DNA of 64,000 nucleotides from Girardia tigrina (lineage: Eukaryota): the NCBI GenBank assembly GCA_001938485.1, contig MQRK01246750.1, forward strand, positions 62,001 to 126,000. Reading direction: 5' to 3'. Shown piece after piece: positions 4,538-39,296 of this stretch. Within the stretch, counting starts at the first letter, position 1; every line of letters starts with the position of its first letter. Position numbers and translations under genes: made by a program. The notes under the pieces were generated by a model that was not told the DNA's origin, did no database searches, and saw only the letters and a program-made list of their open reading frames with translations.

Positions 4538-4540
<3 letters not shown>

Positions 4541-4848
4541 TCTTGTGATCGCAAGTTTAGTATTTCGAAAATATAATTTGATTAAAGCTTTTTTTTATAT
4601 AATTATTGGACATGTTTCGATGTTTACATACGTCATCATCAGCAATTTTCGGATGTTTAGTAAATGAATATTGAATTGTTTGAAAAATACAATTTTAATA
4701 GATACTTTTAAAGGTAACCAAAAAATTAATTATTATTATTTAATTAGTATTATTGGGTAATAATGGCAAAAAGAATATTTTAATTAATGTAAACATCGAA
4801 ACATGTCCAATAATTATATAAAAAAACTTTAATCAAATTATATTTTCG

Positions 4849-4853
<5 letters not shown>
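4538..4853 (-). mobile_element. Mini Penelope-like pLTR unit with inverted partial copy, inside (TA)n/(GA)n
   Basis: 4561-4629 is inverted at about 4787-4853. It contains a hammerhead and has the same end sequence as 33059-33232. Confidence 0.6.
4605..4646 (-). ncRNA. Minimal type-I hammerhead ribozyme
   Basis: Reverse complement: attg CTGATGA t GACGT atgtaa ACATC GAAA CATG TC caat. Core complete, stem II has one mismatch, stem III is the palindromic CAUG, cleavage site GUC. Confidence 0.75.
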
Positions 4854-23800: not shown

Positions 23801-24039
23801 CTGACTAGTTTGGTCAATTCTTTCCGATCTTGGAGAACGATCATTAAATAGAATTTTTCAGAAAATGAGTTTGAATTCCCCTCTACTACTACAGTGTCGT
23901 GCTAAAACCTTGATGTATTCTTAATACCCCATAGTCACGAAAGTTATTTATAACTGATTTTATATTTACGCTGCTTTACTATTCCTGATTTGTATTTTAA
24001 TTAATCGGTTATAGTATGGGATTATTAATGATTCACAAT

Positions 24040-24330
24040 ACAACCTCTCATATTATGAGTCATAATGTGAATCAAAATTTGTTTGAAGAAAGGAAGACTT
24101 ATTCTTCAGAGTCTTATTTCTATTTCTAGTCTCATTCTATCTATGCAAAAACCGCAATGATACAAAACCTTTCTTAATTGACTGGTATGGGAATGCTCAC
24201 TAATCCATGTTTTGAGATGACTTGTTTATTTCAACATTGAACGAGTTGAGACATGCAAATTTATATACAAGATTAACTATCATTATACATTCAGTTCTTG
24301 ACTTTGCTGTAAGGAAGTTTTCATGTTATT
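24040..24330 (-). mobile_element. PLE GIY-YIG fragment
   Basis: NLVYKFAC...TSHLKTWISEH; homologous to 35570-35735. Confidence 0.65.
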
Positions 24331-27300
24331 GACACTATCCTAAAATTATCAATATTTTTAAAAATTGTTTTTTTGAAATTTCTAAAGCCTTCAGGAAATT
24401 GTTATTTATGATTTTAGAACTCTTCTTTTTATCCTTTTTTCTTATTCTTTCAGCTTGGATTCTGTCCAACACTAATCTGATATTGGATAATATTTATTAT
24501 AGCACATAATATACCTCAATTAACATTCGCAAATAGAAGAATAACAAAAATGAATATTGTTAAAAAGGTTTTTAAACAAAATTAAATTGAAGTTTAATAA
24601 TTTATATCCTTGTTATCTAATATTTATACTCAATGTATATAAGAATTATTCATGAAAAACTCGTCCAGTGTCTATAGTGAATTTTATTAGTTTTTATGTC
24701 GAGATTATATTACAGCATGGTGTGACGTGAGAGACAAAAAAGATTAGCTTCAGAAATTGGCAAATCAAGGAGAAATTAAATTCCATCTTAAAAATAATGA
24801 TCATTTCCATTGCAACATAAAAATAATTTTATTATTTGATTTATTTTTTCTGAATGTCTTTTAAGCGTACTCTTAGGGGTAGTAGTACCAGGGACTGGAA
24901 ACTGCTTTAATGTAAATTTTATATTATCCCTTATTTTTCTTTTGTTATGTATTTGATATCGGTTGAAGTATTTATGAAATTTGTTAAAATATATTTATTT
25001 GAAAAAATTGGCTTTTCGTTTTATTCACAAACTATACAGAGAGTAATATATTTATTTAAGTAAAGAGACATGTCCTCAATGGGGTACTGTGAGTTTGAAA
25101 GGATTTATTAAGAATGATGGTCATTTTTATTTCCCTAACCCCTTCAAGTATAATTAATTGTCATGTTTCATAACAAATTTCAACAAATTAAAAGTTTTTC
25201 TCTAACAAATTAATGTTTAAAATATAATAATAAGAGTATTAAAATATGTTTTAATCTGTTTCAATTAAATGTGGATTTTTGATGTTTGACTTTTTCGAAG
25301 AGGAAAACGTATTTCTTGTTTTCTTTTCAATTTTAATTAGTCTAAGTCTACGATTAATTATTTCAGCCTCAATTATCTTTCGAGGAAAAAAATGTTAACG
25401 ATATTTCCATTTTGGTATCGAAATAACTTTTCAGTAAATATTGTCGCAAAATAAAATGTTTTTAGATTTTTCTTTCTTCCGACAAAATTTTTTGGGAATT
25501 TTCAATTTATTTTTTATTATTTAAACAGTATTAATTGATAATTATAAATATAATATCAAAAATTTTATTTGTTAATGTAGGAATTTCAATCAATACAAGA
25601 AATTTAATTTTGTGTCTTCTTTGTCAAAAGAATTGATATTATCCTTATGTATTTTATTTGTAAGAAAGATTTTTCATTGTTTAAATTGGAAATAGAAAAT
25701 TTATAATAAATATAAATTAAATTTGATTAAATCATATTATTTTATTACATCCAGAAATTAATTTGAAGATTGTGTGACCTAGCTAACAGTGCATCTTAAG
25801 TCCCTTTCTCTCAATAATTTAACAAATTTTAACATATAACATTAAAATTATTATTTTTGATCTCATTTGAAATTTCTCACTTTTATCAATGATAACGAAC
25901 CTCAGACTCTCTAGGTATTTAAGACTGATATTTAAGATATTATAAAAACAGATCATGTTAAAATTAACATGAGTACCAAGTTTCAAAATTCATCATTGTA
26001 TAGAGCCCAATAAACCCTTGGAATGCCAGTACTTATCAGCATTACTGTGTCACAACCAGAATTTGTAGTCCTGAAAAGGACCGTTTTACTTTCTCTAATG
26101 CCACCCTTACAATGACACCCGGACGCTCTTACAGCACTCTTTCTGTCTCTTTCTCTTGACACTTGGGTTCTTACTGTGCCACCATTTGGCATGGTTGTAA
26201 AAATCCCCTTCATCTTGAACGGGACATCAGCAAGCAGCCGATTTAATTATTTTTTCTATTTTTCATTATTTTCACAATATCGGTTTAGATTTTATATTGT
26301 TTTGAGAGTGGATATTTCGGATTTTTAATATTATATTTTTTTTAATATTATATATATTTTCTATAATTTTACTACGACACAGGCCTCCCCCACCAAAGCC
26401 GCAGTGTCACAGCTGCGCAAATGCAATGACTCAGCAATCATAACTTTATTAAAAGTCAACTTTTTTTAATTTTTTAACAAAACATTTTATAATAATTATC
26501 GTGTAATGTAATTTTTATATTAAAAAATATTTACTGACTCATATTTTCAATTTAGATAAATATTTCAATTTTGTATTCTAATTTTAAACATTTTAATATA
26601 ATTTTAAATGTTTTATGAAAATATTGGTATTTATAACAATAGCATTTTTAGTAATTTTCTGATTAATTTAAAAATTGGTAATATTATTTATTTTCCTTTA
26701 TTTTAAAACATTGAAAGTTTGTTTATTATAACTTCGTCAATAGAAAAAAAAATTTTCAAAAATTTTTTATCCTTAATTTAATTATCTTTATTTTTTACTT
26801 TATTTCTAACAATTTTTTATTAATTTAATAAACTAAATATATATTTATATATTAACAAAATTGAGTTTCATAATTTGAAAAATTTGTGTTTCTATCCTGT
26901 CCGACTCTTTGAAGTGACTTTTTTTCCTTTCGTCGACAGTCGACTAAAAGAGGCTCCGGTGAATTTTTTTGTCATATTTTAGTTTTTTTATAATGTATCA
27001 AAACAAATTTTTTTTAGATAATTTTCTTTTTTATAATATCTTGGTAATTTTAATTAATTAAAAATATAATAATAAAATTCACACATTTATTTACATTTCT
27101 CGAAAAGAAGCAATAAAAATCAATATATAAAAAATTAATTACTCGATAATACTTGATTTAAATAAAAATTTAATCAAATATATTTTATTTAATGTTTTTG
27201 AAAATCAAAATTATTATTCAAATTACCATTAATATTTTTTCAAAATTATTATTAAGAAAATAGAAAACACAGATTTAAATATATCAAAATATATTAAATA

Positions 27301-27876
27301 CAACAATTTATAAATAAAATAATATTACTAAAATTAACATAAGAACAAAAAGTGTTTATGATTATTAATTACCTGATTAATAATTATAATCCCTGGGTCG
27401 AAAGTTAATTGATTGTTGTACGATCTATATTTGGTTTTCTTTTATGTCTTTTTGTGAGTTTCATTAAATGAAGGGGTCGCAAAAGTGTTTCTGCATTTAA
27501 GATAACTAACTTTGTTAATACAGCATAATCTAAAATTTTGCCAAGTTTTGGAAATTCAAAAAACTGGCCAAATATGGAGTATCAAAAGTACTGGGGTACG
27601 TTCAAACTATTGAAAAATTGACTAAAATGTGAGGGTGCTCAAATTTAGAGTTTACCAATGTTAGAGGTTTAGCTAGCTTTAATTAGACTTTTTAGTACTG
27701 CGTTGGCATTAAAGTTTTGTATCTTTTGATATGTGCACTTGTCGTGGCATTTTTATTAATAAAATATGCACTTAATAATTTTTTAAAACACTAATATTTT
27801 TGGTACTATAAAACGCCATTTTTATGTTTTAAAAACTTAAAGTTTTTCACACATTTTTGCGTGGAATTCTCAACAT

Positions 27877-28070
27877 ATGAAAGGAGCAATTTCGAACAAT
27901 TTTCTTTTATAAGTTCAAGCTAGACCAAAGTGCTGCAGAGATGGCTTGAAAAAATAACGTTGTTTGAAGCGCGAATATTGTAGACAAAACTATTGGAAAA
28001 CGTTGGTTACAGAAATTTTTACGAGAGATTTTGGTTTTGAAGATGCGCCACGAACAGGTCTACCTACAAT
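27877..28070 (+). mobile_element. Mariner transposase 5' fragment
   Basis: YKFKLDQSAAE...RWLQKF...EDAPRTGLP. Confidence 0.6.
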
Positions 28071-28079
28071 AATCTATGT

Positions 28080-29280
28080 GAGGAATATTTTAAATTGTTT
28101 GAATGTGAAATGTAGTGATGCTGTATGTTGATTTGAGTATATTGAATTTAGAATGGTGATTCTCCATCCAGATGGAAATTGGTATTTTTTTATTAAATTT
28201 AAAGTGATTGACTATTCGCACATAATTAAAATAATCATTTTATAAGTTCATATCTTTAATTTCACAATTAAAATTAAGTTTAATATTTTTAGTAAAATTT
28301 AAATTAAATGCATTTTTAATAATTTGATGACATTTTTATTATTTGGGGATTTATTGAGGAATGGTAAAATTTATTATTTTTAATTAATATTTTCTTAGAA
28401 GTTAAATATTTTAAAAAATGACTTAGAAAAATTGTTCGAATAATCATTATTAAAAAGAAAAATAAGAAAACCAATTAGAACGATGACAAACGATGAAAGA
28501 TCTTCTGAGAGTCATAATGATCTTAAATGTGATTGTAATTGTAGTGACCACAATTTATTAATTTAACAATTAATTTAATTTTAACTAAATTAATTATTAA
28601 TCAACTAATTTAATTTTATCAAAACTAACAAAAAAAATGTGCAAAAAAATACGAAATTTAATTTAAAAAAATGGAGTGAATCGACAACATTAGAACGTAA
28701 AGAAATGTCGGAAATTAATTTAAAAAAAAGAATTAACTAAATTAATTTTGTTTTAACCAGGTAAATAAATCTTATTTCCGGTCGATTATGTGAATCTTTT
28801 TAATGGCAATAAACATTTTCAATATTTTTCGATTTTCTTTTTATCTCATTCTGGCATTTTCTACTTGAAGTTTTTTTCTATCACAACCTCTGTTTACATC
28901 TACCTATATCTCTCTCTTTCTTTCATATATCTCCAAAATGTATATCAGCTCATTAGAGGATTTATGCGTCGAAAACTGTTTCGATTTTCTCACAAAGCTG
29001 TTCGACAACTCACCGGACCTCAAATTGCATCGACATCATCCCGGAGCTGTCGGGCAAGATAGCAGCCCCACTATATCCAAACGCCATCCGAAACCGATAG
29101 GATATTACTTTTCTTCAGTAGTTTCTCTCGATCCAATTCCCAGGATCGATTCACGACGATCGGGCCAGCCCAGGTCTCACGTAGACGATGTGGCACCCAC
29201 TTTACAGTAATAAAAATTCAAATGAGAATTGTCTCAATGTTCTTAATAATCTAGAATGACGAAAGGAGAGTTCAGGTTTT
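28080..29280 (-). mobile_element. Decayed PLE-like repeat, interrupted by a solo LTR
   Basis: Colinear with the reverse complement of 44600-45148 on both sides of the 28534-29206 insertion. Confidence 0.5.
28534..29206. mobile_element. Solo LTR (673 bp)
   Basis: TGTAA...TTACA termini, 5-bp TSD GTGAT/GTAAT (one mismatch). The empty site is seen in the paralog at about 44690-44715. Confidence 0.75.
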
Positions 29281-30009
29281 TTTTCAAAGTTATAAATATT
29301 GTAAGTGCACACGGACTTTTGGATATCAGAGTTAAATTGTAAGTTGGATAATTGGATTCTGGAGAAAAAAAGGCATTGTATTTTCAGCAGCCTCTTTTTG
29401 AAAAATCATGTAGGTTTACATTTAACTTCATGATTAATTAAAGATTTAAAATTCGACGCAGTTAAACTATTTCTATCAAAAAAAACTTTTAGTTTGATCT
29501 TCATCGTGTACTTCGTTTTTTTGTAAACCCTAACTCCGGCTTTAAAGCAAGATTAAAGCTAGTTTGAAACCACAGACACTAAATTTCAGAAGATATAAAA
29601 AAACAATCAGTTTTACACAAACTTTATAATATTAATATTATTTTTACTTATTATTAATTTATTGTTGTTGATGTTTTTACTACATTAAAAATTAAAACAA
29701 TAAAATAGAGTTACCTCTTCACATTTGATTAGAATTTATGATTTTCCAAATATTCGAATGAAAATAAATTGATGTAAAATAAGAATTTTAAAGCAAAATT
29801 CTAAGAAAATATTAAAAATGATTTCAGATGACATTTGTCTTTTAAAGTTGTCTATATATATTAAGTATAATTTGTCAGACCGAGTTCGATAAAAAATAAA
29901 TAAGAAATCTAACCGAAATTTTATAACAAAACATAAATAATCTATTTTGTTACATATAAAACATATTTTGTTTTAAAATCAAATTGAAAATTTTAAAAAT
30001 TAATTTGAG

Positions 30010-31200
30010 TAAAAGGAATTCTGATATTGATGTCACAAATACTTCTCTCGTGGCGACTAACGCTGCAATGGATATCTTCACAGGTCAACTAGATTGTATG
30101 GGTAAAATTTCGGTGGACGTAAAAATTAAAGAAAAACGGAGAAATATAACGTTCTTCGTAGTAAATGACATAAAACCAGGCATAATAGGAGGAATAGAAT
30201 TGCAGATGGCGTTTGGAATCGAGTTACATTGGAAAAAGAAAGAAAATGGTGTGAACGAACAATTTTATCAAGTATGTAACTTAGAAGCCAAATTTGGACG
30301 TAAGGTTACAAACGAGGAAAGATTCAAAAGAGCAATGGAAATAATGAAAATTGCAGATAAACCAAAGATTCTTGATATTTTTAAAAACATTAAGGAGTTT
30401 TTATGGCTGATAAATGGGATATCGGATGTACGACGATGATTAAACATAGAATAGACACAAAAGGACCTCCAATTAACCTTACACATGGACAACCATTTAA
30501 TCTGGAAGAAAAGATCGATGAGACTTAAGAATTTGTGGGAAAACAACATTATTAAGAAATGTAATTCACCATGGAATACACCGATGATTTGTGTATAGAA
30601 GAAAGAAAAGAATGATGTTAGAATTTGCTTGGATTTTAGACCGCTAAACCTAGTCACTTAGAGACAGGCAATTCCTATGCCAAATATGATAGAAATGATG
30701 GACAAATTATATGGAACCAGATATTTCACATCAATCGATCTATGTAATGCATACTACCAGATTGAACTAGAGGAAGATTCAAAGCTAAAAACGAAATTTT
30801 CCACAAAGCTAGGACAATTTTGTTTCAATAGAATGCCTTTTGGTATAGCAGCGGCACCGGCAACGTTTCAAGAACTCATAACAAAGGTGCTTGGTGGCAT
30901 AGAACAGACAGTGCTATATAATTGTTGGAACAACATTACGAAATTTTTGATAAAGTATTAGACAAAATCGGGAAAGCAGGTTTAAGAATTAATCCGGAAA
31001 AGTGCCATATACTAAAAACGGAAGTTAAATTTTTCGGACTTGTAATTATACAGATAAAGGTATACAGATGGACCCATCTAAATTAGAATCTATAAAGACA
31101 TTTGAAAAACCGAAATGTGTAAAGAATCTAAGAAGTTTCCTTGGAATTCGCAATTATTACAGACGATTTGTTAAAGACTACGCAACAAAGGCCATGGCAT
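30010..31200 (+). pseudogene. Ty3/Gypsy pol remnant (protease end, RT, connection)
   Basis: SPWNTPMICV, VRICLDFRPLN, IDLCNAYYQI, MPFGIAAAPATFQ. Has stops and frameshifts, and YxDD is deleted. Confidence 0.9.
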
Positions 31201-31711
31201 AAAGTGGTTGTAATGGCAATATCATTTTTATTTTATGAAATTTATTTGTTTCATTGCCATTTAAAATCTCATAAAAATATAATAAATATTATTATTAATT
31301 TGTTACTTTTCTTTTTATTCTATTTTTTTAACAAATTTATATGGAGTCAAAAAAAATTTTAATTTAATAAAAGCTGATTTTTTTTACCTATAAAAAAATA
31401 ATTGTATGAAATACATAATAAATAATTTTTTAATAAATATATTGTAAAAAAACTCTTCATTTTCATTTAGCAGAATTTAGAAAATTGTTAACGGTAAAAT
31501 AATATGAAAATTGAAACTGAGTTATATTGACACATCCTTTGTAGTAGTGATTTAATTCATATTTTTCAAACGATGGGAAAATTTATTTGATAATAATTTT
31601 TAATAACTCCTCATTTATTTTCGAATTTTGATTAATTAATGAAATTTCTTGCAGTAATTATATACATATTATGTTTTATTATTCCTTTCTGTACGTATTG
31701 TTTTAAGATTA

Positions 31712-31845
31712 ACCGTCTATTTCGGTGTATAAGATGACCCTTTATTCTTAAAAAAAAGTTGCTGAAATTGTAGGATAAGGCAAACTAATATTTTTGGGAC
31801 AAATTTTTAGGCTTAAAGTGTCATCTTATTCAGAAATATGTGGTA
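31712..31845. mobile_element. Degenerate Tc2/pogo-type MITE
   Basis: Ends ccgtctatttcggtgtataagatgac and gtcatcttattcagaaatatgtgg resemble CCGTA...TATAAGACGAC TIRs. Confidence 0.35.
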
Positions 31846-31934
31846 TATCATATGAGCAATAATGATTATTCTTACTCAAGACTCCCATTTTCTAACAGTT
31901 AGTATTCCGAATTAAAACTATTAAATACTAATTG

Positions 31935-32420
31935 TGAGGAATACTTTTGAATGGTGTTTATTGTATTTTGTGTTCGGTATGTTATTTTTAGGATTGTGTT
32001 TCACCCACCCAGATGGAAGATTGGTATTTAAATGTTTTGAACCATCGAATTATTTGGACAATTTCAAAATTTGAATAACAACTTTAAAATTAAGTTAATA
32101 CATTTTAATCTATAAATATATAATAATATGTTAATAGTGAATTATAATGTAAATGTTTGTTTAATCATAAATAATATATTTAAAATTGATTAAAATATTT
32201 TTGAAAATAATTTTAAAATATTTTAGTCAGGAATTGTGATTTAAATTGTGAATTAAATTGTAATTTAAATTTTTTCGAATAATTAGAGGTTTAAAAATAG
32301 AATTAAAAATTTATCAATCAAGAACGAGGTCTAACTACGAACGTTTTTTGGAGAATTGTCCTGGAGGCAATTCGAGTTGTGATGTCAATAAAAGTATTGG
32401 AAATCGTATTAGTGTTTTTA
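31935..32420 (-). mobile_element. Decayed PLE-like repeat (paralog of 400-745)
   Basis: Translates SSIWVGETQS...TEH and NTISNTFIDITTRIASR. Confidence 0.45.
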
Positions 32421-32429
32421 ATACTAATA

Positions 32430-32560
32430 CAGTCTACTCCGGCTAATCCGAACCACCGGCTAAACCGAACACGGAAAATTCTCCTATGTTTTCTAATATA
32501 ATTTTCGCTTAACAAAAACCGAAAAACTGGCAAAATCGAAAACCGAACGACTTTATGAGA
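32430..32560 (+). mobile_element. pogo/Tigger-type transposon end
   Basis: TA|CAGTCTACTCCGGCTAATCCGAAC followed by a repeated CCGGCTAAACCGAAC motif. Confidence 0.55.
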
Positions 32561-33058
32561 ACGGGCTCAACAGATACTTTGTACTTTTGTTCGTCTAATC
32601 TGAAAAGTACATAAGTGCGTACTATTTCTAATACGATTTCCACTACTTTTATTGGCATCACAACGCGAGTTGCCTCCAGGACAATAAGATGATTATCATA
32701 ATATTATTTGATTAGCAAAATCCGATTATTTCTTCATGAGAAACGTTAAAGTGTTTTGATAGAGCATAATTTTTTTTCATTTGAAAAAGTGAGTTCGTTT
32801 TTTGTTTTAATAATTTATGTTTGTCTTTTGTTTTATTAGAGTTTCTCGTGAAACTATTTTAGAGAAAAAATATCTTTAACTGGGATTTATAATATCAAAT
32901 ATATTTTGTTTTTATTTAATAGAAGTTTACTAAAACGCATTTCAAGAATTAAGTATCTAATTTTATATAAATATTTTTTATTTAAATTTATGATCTGACC
33001 GTTTATGTTTGATATGAAAATTTTGAAAAAAAATTATTTATATATATATATATATATT

Positions 33059-33232
33059 GAGTCTTGTGAACGCAAGTTTAGTATTTCGAAAATATAATTT
33101 GATTAAAGCTTTTTTAAAATTGTTTAAATTGATTAAAGCCTTTTTATATAATTATTGGACATGTTTCGATGTTTATATACATCATCATCAGCAATTTGAA
33201 AACAATTTTAATAGATATATTAACTTTAAAAG
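33059..33232 (-). mobile_element. Mini PLE pLTR unit in (TA)n
   Basis: Shares sequence with 4538-4650 and 4690-4714; flanked on both sides by (TA)n. Confidence 0.6.
33154..33195 (-). ncRNA. Minimal type-I hammerhead ribozyme (perfect core)
   Basis: Reverse complement: attg CTGATGA t GATGT atataa ACATC GAAA CATG TC caat. 4-bp stem I, 5-bp stem II, palindromic stem III, GUC site. Confidence 0.85.
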
Positions 33233-33653
33233 GTATATATATATATATATNNNNNNNNNNNNNNNNNNNNNNNNNNNNNNNNNNNNNNNNNNNNNNNNNN
33301 NNNNNNNNNNNNNNNNNNNNNNNNNNNNNNNNNNNNNNNNNNNNNNNNNNNNNNNNNNNNNNNNNNNNNNNNNNNNNNNNNNNNNNNNNNNNNNNNNNNN
33401 NNNNNNNNNNNNNNNNNNNNNNNNNNNNNNNNNNNNNNNNNNNNNNNNNNNNNNNNNNNNNNNNNNNNNNNNNNNNNNNNNNNNNNNNNNNNNNNNNNNN
33501 NNNNNNNNNNNNNNNNNNNNNNNNNNNNNNNNNNNNNNNNGTTAAATTATTAAAATAAAACATGTAAAAATGAATTAAATGTATCTGAAACGCAAAGATA
33601 TAAATTTATTTTAGATATATAGAACTACTAGTTCTTTAGTTATTTAAAAAGTG

Positions 33654-34406
33654 TTAATTTGGGGATAATTGTGCAATTGCTTTCAGATACATAAGGACAT
33701 CCGCTCTTCCGTAACCGGCTATAGCACGTCTGACTCTGTCCACTAAGTCTCGATATTTCTTGACACCTATTTCCTGGATTCCTGTAGCCCCTTGCATGAA
33801 TGCTGCCTTATGTTTTTGACAATCCTTCTCCAACCCTTCGATGAGCAACCACATTGAAGGATGACTGCACATGAATAAGGATTGAATTCCATGATACCAC
33901 CCTTCGACGATGTTTGTGGTCTGTGCGATTCCATCACCGGCAGAGTCGTATTGATTCCACATAGGGATTGGAAACGTCGCTGAGCCAAAATTGTTGCCTC
34001 TGCCTCGAAGTCTTCTACCTCTAATATAGCTGTGTTCAAAGTAAGATAGAAGCTCATTCATTTTATCATGTTCTGGCATCTGTTCAGTTAGTAAGTCGAA
34101 TGACTCAGCAACATCATCAACCGGTACATGAGCTAGTGCTGATAAACATCGAACACATCCACGCAATTCGTCGTCATTTTCGTAATCAGTCTTCATTCCC
34201 AGTTCGTTGACCTTGCGTATAACACTCTGGCTGAGATAAAAATAGCAACCTGTTACCGATGCTTCTGGATATCCATGATTGAATGCTCCCATAGCCGCTT
34301 GTTCAAAATCGTTAAGTTAATCAATTGGATGAATAGTCCGGGGTGATCAGTCCGGGATGAACCGTCAGCTTAGATGAAACGTCCGGGGATGAACAGTCCT
34401 AGAACC
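33654..34406 (-). mobile_element. MULE element, internally deleted: 5' end joined to the C-terminal transposase half
   Basis: DFEQAAMGAF...GCYFYLSQ...WNQY...TTNIVEGWYH in an open 212-aa ORF. Terminal GTCCGGGGATGAAC-type repeats at 34335-34406. Confidence 0.85.
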
Positions 34407-35235: not shown

Positions 35236-35306
35236 TTTATTATTGAGTATTGTGAATGCTAATTTAATATTTTTGAAAAATAATTTTGTTAAATTTTTTT
35301 TAAGAA

Positions 35307-35346
35307 ATTGTACATGTTTCGGAAATTTTTCTTCCATCATCAGCAA
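35307..35346 (-). ncRNA. Minimal type-I hammerhead ribozyme in the PLE pLTR
   Basis: Reverse complement: ttg CTGATGA t GGAA gaaaaat TTCC GAAA CATG TA caa; GUA site. Confidence 0.8.
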
Positions 35347-35738
35347 ATATATTTATTAGTTATTTTTCTTCTTCTTTTGTTTATTAATGTTACTTTTTTA
35401 TGAAATTATTAAAAGGGAACTATGTAATTAAATATTTATTTAATTTAAGATATTATTGGAAAATAACGGCAAAATGTTTTTTTAATTAAAGGTTTTAAGG
35501 TTTGAAACCGCTTTTCTTTGTCCATTTTGAATATTTATTAATGGATTATTGTGTATTATTAATAATGATTTACAGAACTGTCTCTCATAATGTGAATCAA
35601 AACCCTTCTGTAAAACAGAAAACTTATCTTTGAAAGAGAAGAGATTCTATTTTTACAATCAAGAACTTTACTCGATCGACTTGATTATGAATGCTCACTA
35701 ATACGGGTTTTGAGATGACGATTTGTCTCTAAAAGATG

Positions 35739-36274
35739 GGCCTCCCATCTCTCACAAATAATATAGAACCTCTATGCTCCTTAGAGGATCCTCTCAAACT
35801 AAAGAGTCACTAGCAGCATATAATATAGGCTTCCTACGGGGTCGAATAGTTTCGGTCTCCGAGATCTTTTCGGCTTCCCAGTAAGAAACGACCACCCTTG
35901 GGTTGAATATCCATGGTTCTCCATACCTTTGGCTGTATTCGTGGACTTTGTACAGCTGAAAAAGGGACATCTGAACTCTCTCCTTGCAGTTAGATCTGCA
36001 ATCCTAAAAGTCAGATTTGTTTCTTCAGTACCTATCACTTCCTTCACCGCCATCGAGATAGTCGGGGGAGGGTTCGTCACGGATTGAATCTGGTTGCCTG
36101 AATGTTGAGGTTTTCTAAGACTCTTACTTCTGTGTTATTTGTTGAACTGGTTTGTGTTGGTGTCATTTTCGGTTCTCGAATTTCTTCTGTTTTCTCAAAT
36201 TTATGATCCCGGTTTAGGTGCCTTGTCAGCTACCACATCGTTTTGTATGACTTTTTGCATAGTGTAAATGGGAA
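35739..36274 (-). mobile_element. 5'-truncated second copy of the zinc-finger RTE-like LINE
   Basis: LCKKSYKTMW*LTRHLNRDH and FRCPFFSCTKSTNTAKGMENHG; ends at GGGAGGCC, which matches 36598. Confidence 0.8.
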
Positions 36275-38822
36275 TTGTAATTGTAAGGTAGGCCTCCTCC
36301 CCGCGGTAACCCGCGCTAATGACTCGTAGAGCCTATAAGGAGCCGAGTCGGTTGTATCATTGGGTGTCACCCCTCAACTGATCATGGGCCCCGCCATTAG
36401 ACGTTTCCACGATCCCGCTCGGATAGCATGCCTTTAAGGTGGTGGATTGCTAGCCCTCGCCCTTCGTACTATCGTTGGTCGGCATCCAACAAAGGCATGC
36501 TTCGGACACTTTGGCCTAGAGCGGACTTTAGTTTCCCAGAGACACCACGTGGAGGTATGTCCGACTGGCTTAACACAGGTTACCAAAGTAACAGGTTGGC
36601 CTCCCATCTCTTTCGAATGGTATTGAGCCACTAGGCTCTTTAGAGGGTCCACCCAAACTAAAGAGTGCTAGCTGCCCCCCGATAGGCCTCCTACGGGGAC
36701 AGAGTGCTTCAGTCTCCGAAATTTCTTGGGCTTCCCTGTTGCAAACGACCAATCATGAATTGTGGTACCATGATTGAGCATCCCTTTGGCTGTATTGGTG
36801 GACTTGGTACAGCTGCGAAAGGGACATTTGAACTTTCCCCTCGCATTTGGATCTGCGATCCTAAAAGACAAATATGTATCTTCGGGATAAGTCGTTTACT
36901 CCACCACCGTTGAAATAGTCGGGGTGACTGTTGTTGGCTGAAAATTGGTCTTTTGGATAAGTGTGGGTTCTTCGTCTCTGTCTGGATTGTCGCTTCTTCT
37001 GTTGGATTGCATTGATGATTCTGTCTGATATTCATTGATATTCTCCTTCGCTTCTATTCGATGATCTTTACGCAGATGCCTAGTGAACCATCCTTTCGTT
37101 TTGTAACCTTTGCTGTATTTGGTACATTTAAACAGTTTTTCATCTTCTGGGAGCTGAAGCGGGATGCTTACTGTGGATTCCGTGTGATCCCGCTTGAGAT
37201 GTCTATTTAGCTCCTTTTGTTCGGCAAACTCTTTAAAGCAATCTTCTATCGTACATTGAAGGAGTTTATCTCTCTCATTGATTAATTTTGGCAGATCGGC
37301 TCTTGTTCTGTTCTGCTTCCCTTCTCTTATTAAGGAGTTGATGTATTGCCCTCTTTCTATTGTTGGGTCTCTGTAGACAATGTGCTGTATGAAGTTTTCA
37401 TACTTTGCACTATCTCCAAAGAGCCACTGTATATCCACTCTGAGGCATTTGGGAGAGCTTGCTTCTTTCTCCCACTGATCTTCTTTCCCATTCACATTGT
37501 TGCTCTCCACACACACCTCATAATGTTTGGTGTATCAGAGGTGTCCAACCTGCTATGATAGGCAAGTCTTCTGCTTGCAATGATATCCATGGGGAGCAGG
37601 AGTCCAATGTCGATAGTGTCCATTTGTATCCTCTCAGTCTTCTGCACTTTCATGATTGTGCGAGTACACAAATTATGAAAGGCAGCCAGCATATTGATTG
37701 TTTTGTTACCTGTTCGCCAACTCTCACAACTGTAGTATACTACGGGAAGTATGCAAGAGCTGACAATCTTCTTCTTGTTCCATAAAGAGAGTTTGGAGCT
37801 CCTCAGAACCGGTTTGAGGTCCCTGATCTTCCTGGTACCCTTTTGAATTCTTTCTCTTATTTCATCTTCAGCGGTGCCATTTGAGGAGATTGTGGAACCC
37901 AAATAGACGAATTTGCATACACACTCAATACCAGTCTCAAGCTGGTGTCTGGCGGTGAGAACTTTGGTATGTCCGTTTAGGTTCATAACTTTGGTCTTAT
38001 TGATATTGATCTTTAGTCCTAAATCTACAAATGAGTCATTCATTAGAATAAGGTTTCTGATAAGATTGTTCCAGTCGGTGTCTATAAGACAGAGATCGTC
38101 TGCGTAAGCCAGTCTGTTGATATCGAGGCAGCTTCCATCTTCAGTAGTCATCTTTGCTCCTCCTGAGAGACCATATAATATCGCTCGTTTCAGGACTGTA
38201 TCGAAGACGATATTGAATAGGAGCGAACCTAAAACACAACCATGTCTAACTCCTTTGTTCATATTGAAGGTTTTATCCCCTATTGAACCTCTAAATCCCT
38301 CATGAAAGGCTTTGATAACTTCAAGCATTCTCCCCCTTATCCTTAGTTTCTTTAAACAGCTCCAGAGAGACTCCCGGGGGACGCTGTCGAATGCTTTCTC
38401 CAGATCTATAAAGATTACAAAAATGTGGATATTTTTGTATCTTGCTTCTTCCTGTAGCTTTCTCAAGATGCTGATAGATTGTTACGTTCCTCTGCCTGTC
38501 CGGAATCCAAATTGCCATTCGTCCAGTGAGGCTTCAATTATTGGAGTGATACGATTAGCAATAAATCTCGCAAAGACTTTACCGCTTACGTCTAGTAGAA
38601 AAATACCTCTATAGTTACTCTGGTCTTTGCGAGATCCTTTCCCTTTGAATAGAATGACCACTCTGGCCTCTCTCCCACTTGGTGGGAACTCTTCCACACC
38701 GTCCCATATATTCCTGAAGCATATTTCCAATAGGGAGATAATATTCGTACCTCCCCATTTATATACTTTAGGAATAAGTCCATCTGAGCCTGCTGCTGTA
38801 ACCTGCTGCTGGAAAATAACAG
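36275..38822 (-). mobile_element. RTE-like non-LTR retrotransposon, 5'-truncated and frameshifted, with three C-terminal C2H2 zinc fingers
   Basis: NYRGIFLL, QFGFR, FIDLEKAFDSV, GVRHGCVL, YADDL, YLGS. Fingers lie in ORFs 36896-37516 and 36668-36871. GC-rich 3' UTR and (TTACAA)2 tail. Confidence 0.9.
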
Positions 38823-39256
38823 GTACGAGTTTTTACACCCGTTACACATCAAATTTATAAACCAGATTAGTTTTCAATCCCCAAATAGTTTTCGATTTAT
38901 TCGAGAAGAAGCTTTGAACTTTGGATGTAATTGAAGCTGCTGTGACATTACATATATTCGTGCAAATACTTTTCTTAAATGCTTTAAATCATTCAGAATA
39001 TTGTATTTTGATTATTATTGTTTGTACTCCTCAATTTTTTCTTTATTTAGTCCTTTTTTAACCCGTGTTTGGTACATAATTTTTCCAATGTAACCTTAAT
39101 GTTGTGATCTATTTTTTTTGTTTTTTGTACATGTTATCCATCAAGCGTCCTCTAAAAATATTTAAACCATGTTTTGTGGTTTCAAAATTGGAAAACAAAC
39201 TCCAAACTCTGTGGACTAAGCCCTTTATCACACCATCTATATAACTAACAAATATA

Positions 39257-39296
39257 ATTGCTGATGATTGAAGAAGAAATTCCGAAACATATTCGG
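39257..39296 (+). ncRNA. Decayed hammerhead in the inverted pLTR
   Basis: attg CTGATGA t tGAAgaagaaaTTCC GAAA cata tt; stems III and I are mutated. Confidence 0.5.

Follow-up and report, generated by a model that had tools for sequence, protein, structure and literature searches.

Penelope-like retrotransposons (PLEs) carry hammerhead ribozymes in their pseudo-LTRs (pLTRs). The closest described motif is the min-HHR that Cervera and De la Pena reported in 2014 (PMC4209133). According to the main text of that paper it is a type I ribozyme with a short helix I, a nucleotide that separates position 9 from 10.1, a G10.1-C11.1 pair and palindromic positions 15.2-16.2 and loop 3. Its dimers cleave weakly, and it occurs in thousands of mostly solo copies that belong to several families, some of them standing as inverted pairs 100-700 bp apart. 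A second reference point is PAc, the Anolis carolinensis Poseidon described by Frangieh et al. 2024 (PMC11167929), whose hammerhead is reported to cleave only with the PLE protein; insertion persists in PAc ribozyme mutants, and none of the RNA reads terminates at the cut. Type I hammerheads related to those of PLE pLTRs are also described in non-LTR retrozymes (bioRxiv 10.64898/2026.07.22.740005), which the preprint defines by the presence of two or more hammerhead-bearing units in tandem.

The motif that we analyzed lies on the minus strand of the window, by which we mean the whole 64,000-nucleotide stretch of Girardia tigrina DNA under study (Table 1). A sequence-only reading had claimed a complete minimal hammerhead at 33154-33195. 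The string is present as it had been given: the core elements CUGANGA, GAAA and UH are complete with all core nucleotides intact, helix I falls in the range of 4-5 bp, helix II starts with G10.1-C11.1, and the nucleotide after A9 is an extra U. The motif is thus a min-HHR, a kind that has already been described. It shares with the published examples the type I topology, the short helix I, the nucleotide between 9 and 10.1, the G10.1-C11.1 pair and the palindromes, and the thousands of mostly solo copies in several families with occasional inverted pairs are found here as well (PMC4209133). However, helix II has 5 bp here and 7-8 bp in S. mansoni.

Table 1. Features of the hammerhead locus and of related insertions in the window (coordinates of the window; strand "." where none is assigned)
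Feature	Position	Strand	Remarks
Minimal type I hammerhead, family A	33154..33195	-	complete core; cleavage predicted between 33158 and 33157
Stem I, 5' arm	33195-33192	-	pairs with 3' arm 33157-33154, 4 bp
Core CUGAUGA	33191-33185	-	followed by extra U at 33184
Stem II	33183-33179 with 33172-33168	-	5 bp, 6-nt loop
Core GAAA	33167-33164	-	read from the sequence
Palindromic stem III, ACAUGU	33159..33164	-	predicted pairing between copies; duplex -4.6 kcal/mol
C17	33158	-	predicted cut directly 3' of C17
5'-truncated PLE 3' stub (~185 bp)	33055..33238	-	last ~45 nt of pLTR, hammerhead, tail
Tail, corresponding to ORF start	33055..33157	-	ends at the +70-79 cluster of 3' ends
AUG in palindrome	33160..33162	-	likely PLE ORF start in longer copies; out of frame in the stub
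(TA)n tract, 3' flank	33041..33057	.	from the sequence
(TA)n tract, 5' flank	33236..33250	.	from the sequence; then 290-N gap
Second family A insertion	4538..4853	.	minus-strand stub, hammerhead core from 4642, C-A mismatch in stem II
Sister PLE, family B	35238..39238	-	~76% to family A; intact hammerhead 35307-35347

An Rfam scan of the window gave no hammerhead match at E<=10. As a monomer the 42-mer folds no better than its shuffles (z -1.13), the minimum free energy (MFE) structure differs from the active fold, and stem III is energetically costly, with +3.2 kcal/mol compared to -2.2 kcal/mol without it. Since both Rfam and monomer folding are silent, recognition depends on core sequence, copy number and covariation and not on folding energy. 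The pattern of the family to which the motif belongs, family A, has 3,716 matches in the 1.43-Gb genome, and the reversed-pattern control has 0. With stem II fixed at one length and loop 3 left free, a generic core was matched 24,233 times genome-wide, with 8 matches in the control. The motif is not a chance string. The genome holds at least 24,233 minimal cores at this one stem II length, and these are mostly members of TATA- or TTAA-loop families that far outnumber family A.

The same reading had set beforehand a lack of stem II covariation across genomic copies as a result that would speak against a ribozyme, and covariation is present across the genomic families. A search that excluded the family A stem II returned 3,961 further cores (control 0). 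From 30 loci of this search we took 15 distinct motifs without any pairing filter, one edge match being omitted. Of these 15, 12 have a paired stem I and 10 a paired stem II, where shuffled motifs reach means of 3.8 and 3.9, respectively. The observed pairing was attained in 0 of 10,000 shuffles for stem I and in 1 of 10,000 for stem II, a comparison in which relatedness between the motifs is uncontrolled. Among 13 representatives, 6 of 8 pairs are altered on both sides, a figure that is biased by the pre-selection of these motifs for pairing. Within family A itself a variant replaces G-C by U-A in stem II. Loop 3 is palindromic in 91 of 100 among the generic cores listed, as judged by eye, with three main palindromes. 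Stem I, stem II and the palindrome thus covary across families.

The claim that minimal type I hammerheads with a palindromic stem III reside in PLE pLTRs is borne out by longer copies, which join the hammerhead to a GIY-YIG nuclease upstream and to a reverse transcriptase (RT) ORF downstream. The sequence upstream of the hammerhead translates to the C-terminal end of a GIY-YIG-type nuclease, and in 19 of the 30 loci fetched by a nuclease-region query the hammerhead follows 416-493 nt downstream on the same strand. In the flanks of 28 loci and of the window copy the 5' ends are ragged within a common AT-rich region, and the tail is common to all. Overlapping fragments from different copies give the N-terminus, a DKG motif, the RT and the C-terminal nuclease; an intact full-length copy was not seen among the copies examined. 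Pieces of the family ORF match Pfam RVT_1 with E 2e-6 to 5e-3, both under the curated cut-off, and Pfam GIY-YIG was not called at cut-off (E 0.19 in one scan, no match in the scan of the window ORFs). Sixty homologues with RT domains came from a search of longer proteins, and the family ORF aligns at both of its ends to full-length RT homologues of 760-900 aa. Among solved structures only weak matches to retron and group II RTs were obtained, and telomerase was absent from them.

The nuclease has C..C between the GIY and YIG positions and is without a CX2-5CxxC linker. The definitions in PMC8557442 place a CCHH, linker-less GIY-YIG nuclease in the Penelope/Poseidon type, and the features seen here fit an EN+ PLE of this type, the assignment being made by motifs. 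A tail beyond the pLTR and inverted 5'-truncated copies are present, as in EN+ PLEs. Like PAc (PMC11167929), family A is a PLE with a C-terminal GIY-YIG nuclease and AT-rich targets. Inverted PLE pairs were seen at 4538-4853 of the window, in C138735 and C199435 and at locus L181, and some of their junctions use letters of stem I or of the palindrome as microhomology. Locus L078 carries an inverted upstream piece.

The copy in the window is very probably a PLE pLTR hammerhead that was 5'-truncated between TA repeats, a lone monomer that is predicted to be likely non-cleaving. The stub aligns to three other copies (L012, L036 and L223) except for one 30-nt duplication; its lower end is blurred by the TA repeat. 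The duplication lies in the tail and shifts the frame. The window sequence holds no tandem partner of the stub; the assembly gap of 290 N at 33251-33540, whose content is unseen, adjoins it and may conceal more of the element or a second copy. The nearest family A core, with a mismatch in stem II, stands at a distance of ~28.5 kb, and an inverted piece at 4787-4853 belongs to the second family A insertion.

It could be argued that the stub is a unit of a non-autonomous non-LTR retrozyme, a tandem repeat giving circular RNA, and not a truncated autonomous PLE. Retrozymes do have type I hammerheads, reportedly derived from PLE pLTRs (bioRxiv 10.64898/2026.07.22.740005), and locus L026 has two same-strand cores 447 nt apart. 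However, L026 also has an inverted copy between its two cores, which is the PLE pattern. A tandem array is absent at the stub, which is solo and continuous with a PLE ORF, unlike the repeated units by which retrozymes are defined, and the ragged 5' ends run into the nuclease ORF. This continuity with the RT-nuclease ORF largely refutes a retrozyme origin, which we consider highly improbable.

The surroundings of the stub are mostly mobile-element debris, and among 12 window ORFs Pfam found mobile-element domains only, or nothing. A 220-aa open frame at 33657-34316 (minus) has no Pfam match; its product we take to resemble a DNA-transposon protein. At 26043-26087 (minus) there is a match to the histone 3' stem-loop (RF00032, E 0.0049, under the gathering score), and no histone ORF was recognized near it. 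Expression was judged from assembled RNA contigs, not from raw reads, and metagenome runs with small shares were left out. No RNA contig showed transcription of the stub locus, and the unique flanking DNA is almost without cover. A host gene around the stub was not indicated either, as no spliced joints were seen in 24000-33250 in four runs, although the absence of contigs is weak evidence.

Two copies of the ribozyme would pair through the 6-nt palindrome and thereby build stem III, as the anatomy of the motif and PMC4209133 suggest. The active family A dimer is predicted at -10.2 kcal/mol, compared to -18.4 kcal/mol for the best two-strand fold. Because the active dimer is less stable than the competing fold, the activity is likely weak and probably needs the PLE protein. 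For active elements we thus envisage a ribozyme that is dimer-dependent and probably protein-assisted. This would agree with the low dimer activity described in PMC4209133 and the protein dependence described in PMC11167929.

A partner for the stub itself might be found on the same strand ~2.1 kb upstream, beyond the 290-N gap, where the family B core has the same palindrome ACAUGU. The family B element is enclosed by an inverted repeat, made up of 35289-35363 and a degenerate family B hammerhead at 39261 (plus). The stub would be functionally active if it formed a mixed dimer in a read-through transcript, or if it cleaved in trans with family RNA. Such a read-through would start from the family B element or from the LINE inserted in it, which lie on the same strand ~2 kb upstream; we judge this whole scenario, source included, to be improbable. 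Both cores are intact, and a mixed A/B dimer can be drawn at -9.0 kcal/mol with a stem I of 4+3 bp; family sequence also occurs in contigs from runs whose RNA origin was recorded or guessed. However, the competing folds are more stable (MFE -13.5 kcal/mol for the mixed dimer), the probability of stem I in the native flanks is < 0.1, published dimers cleave weakly (PMC4209133), and the unique flanks are almost without contig cover and show no spliced joints. We therefore favor a likely non-cleaving stub, because it is a lone and apparently untranscribed monomer. As one dead stub among thousands, the single locus matters little; it is the set of families that bears on the purpose of PLE hammerheads.

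If cleavage shaped the RNA from which new copies are made, the ends of genomic copies should be informative. We aligned 63 family A copies; 8 poorly aligned rows were dropped, the stub at 33055-33238 among them. Ten of the 63 copies run on into ORF or N and 53 terminate. Counted from the cut, the terminating copies end at +35-37 (n=6), +45-52 (n=28) and +70-79 (n=16), with three in between, so that 50 of 53 fall within three end clusters, in positions blurred by the TA flanks. As in PAc (PMC11167929), the 3' tail is set by clustered ends past the cut, with three clusters in family A compared to two in PAc. At the cut itself, 3' breaks account for 6 of 100 among the matches listed (223 in all); 4 are distinct and 2 are genuine family A copies that stop exactly there (L177 and L178). 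Breaks at a neighboring position look similar among the matches listed (443 in all). The four distinct breaks at the cut (L175-L178) all continue with TGT. By eye, 5' junctions were found at the cut in 8 of 100 among the matches listed (188 in all), one base downstream in ~18 of 100 among the matches listed (153 in all), and one base upstream in 1 of 36. Insertion ends, 3' as well as 5', are hence not piled up at the cut above neighboring positions among the matches listed.

This bears on the proposal made in PMC4209133 that cleavage defines the RNA template. Monomers would be cut from tandem transcripts and perhaps circularized, as an obligatory step of transposition. The two copies that stop exactly at the cut are in line with it, and a religated circle that is internally primed would also yield tails past the cut. 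On the other hand, the ends are not piled up at the cut, and PAc ribozyme mutants insert normally in vitro (PMC11167929), so that we regard obligatory template cutting as unlikely, though less so than an active stub. The lack of a pile-up argues instead for templates that are uncut or religated, as in PAc. Most likely, new copies are reverse-transcribed from RNA that is intact or religated at the ribozyme, and reverse transcription would start 35-79 nt past the cut, as suggested by the positions of the copy ends.

The second line of evidence on ribozyme function is the position of the start codon. Where family A copies reach the ORF, its frame begins with the AUG of the palindrome, 2 nt before the cut. 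The 30 loci obtained with a query downstream of the AUG include 9 copies with a 5' hammerhead; the frame runs on into the ORF in 6 of these, and the other three have an A-run change or a deletion. It holds in 17 of 21 copies among 30 loci in a set that is biased, as the protein query began at the Met. The frame aligns from its residue 3 to residue 2 of the full-length homologue P0004. In family A, three out-of-frame AUGs precede and overlap the stem III AUG, and for this reason its use as the start codon is what we infer.

Other families place an AUG within the motif as well, and, read from the tails alone, a similar N-terminal peptide follows from it. The AUG lies in the stem III palindrome in families A, B and D and in stem II in family C (in frame in 6 of 7 copies, tails alone), and in families D and F an AUG is formed by A9, the extra U and G10.1 (tails alone). 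In five families the AUG always precedes the cut: its position moves and the order is kept. The one copy of family G shows no clear frame from the motif, and the most abundant hammerhead families have a palindrome without AUG. A start codon within the hammerhead and upstream of the cut is also found in PAc (PMC11167929); its ORF begins at stem II, 26 nt ahead of the cut, and that of family A in the stem III palindrome, 2 nt ahead of it. The main text of PMC4209133 does not contain 'start codon', 'ATG' or 'AUG'; its supplements may already list these motifs or start codons.

Since the AUG is upstream of the cut, cleavage would remove the start codon: the frame indicates that the cut would separate the AUG from the ORF. 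The role of the ribozyme is therefore most likely the processing or silencing of the element's own RNA and not the making of template ends. That copy ends do not lie at the cut and that the start codon stands just upstream of it in several diverged families together favor a regulatory role over template processing. One may speculate, with some reserve, that PLE hammerheads are translational off-switches. The protein of the element would bring about the decapitation of the mRNA that encodes it, and insertion would do without this negative feedback. This idea presupposes protein-dependent cleavage as in PAc, where it was shown experimentally (PMC11167929); family A is known here from its sequence. 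If it were true, the conserved extra U would in part be a letter of a start codon.

A side finding on the same element is more interesting than the hammerhead stub. The nuclease genes of family A are often interrupted just after an 11-nt stretch that codes for the YIG motif. At this site 801 of 1,485 copies are intact for 8 further bases; 80 nt upstream, at a control site, the figure is 1,495 of 1,745. The excess of interruptions is ~37%, and about a third of family A nuclease genes are affected. Where mapped, the inserts are a LINE and a short partner of ~416 nt, and one or the other follows the site in 18 of 24 PLE loci, in a sample depleted of intact copies. In the family B element of the window the same motif is split by two stacked inserts at 35735-38830 (minus). 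The LINE 5' junctions at the YIG site differ between loci. Viewed from the LINE, 6 of 30 3'-end loci run into PLE nuclease, as do, by eye, 21 of 100 among the 3'-end matches listed. Loci with the LINE or its short partner include L084, L151, L163 and L186-L215. The LINE has an RT and C-terminal C2H2 fingers, and an APE-type nuclease fragment is found in L040.

The LINE and its short partner are likely a PLE-targeting retrotransposon. Non-LTR elements that target transposons are known in general (PMC4640811), and in titles and the starts of abstracts we found no paper on a LINE that targets PLEs. Should both prefer the catalytic motif in the nuclease of the PLE, this would be a clear example of a retrotransposon that targets another. 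A single event may be the origin of some of the short-insert copies. Where LINE 3' ends lie off target, the first 2-11 letters of the PLE target site often come next, which suggests microhomology priming or an RNA reaching into the target. We had considered the short insert as a tRNA-derived SINE and dropped this in favor of a putative HDV-like fold. Rfam gave no ribozyme family match on 7 loci with the short insert. Judged by eye, its 5' end resembles a double pseudoknot of the HDV type in which variants differ by compensatory changes, and this putative fold can be drawn at L044, L113, L199, L206 and L208 and at ~36420-36580 (minus) of the window.
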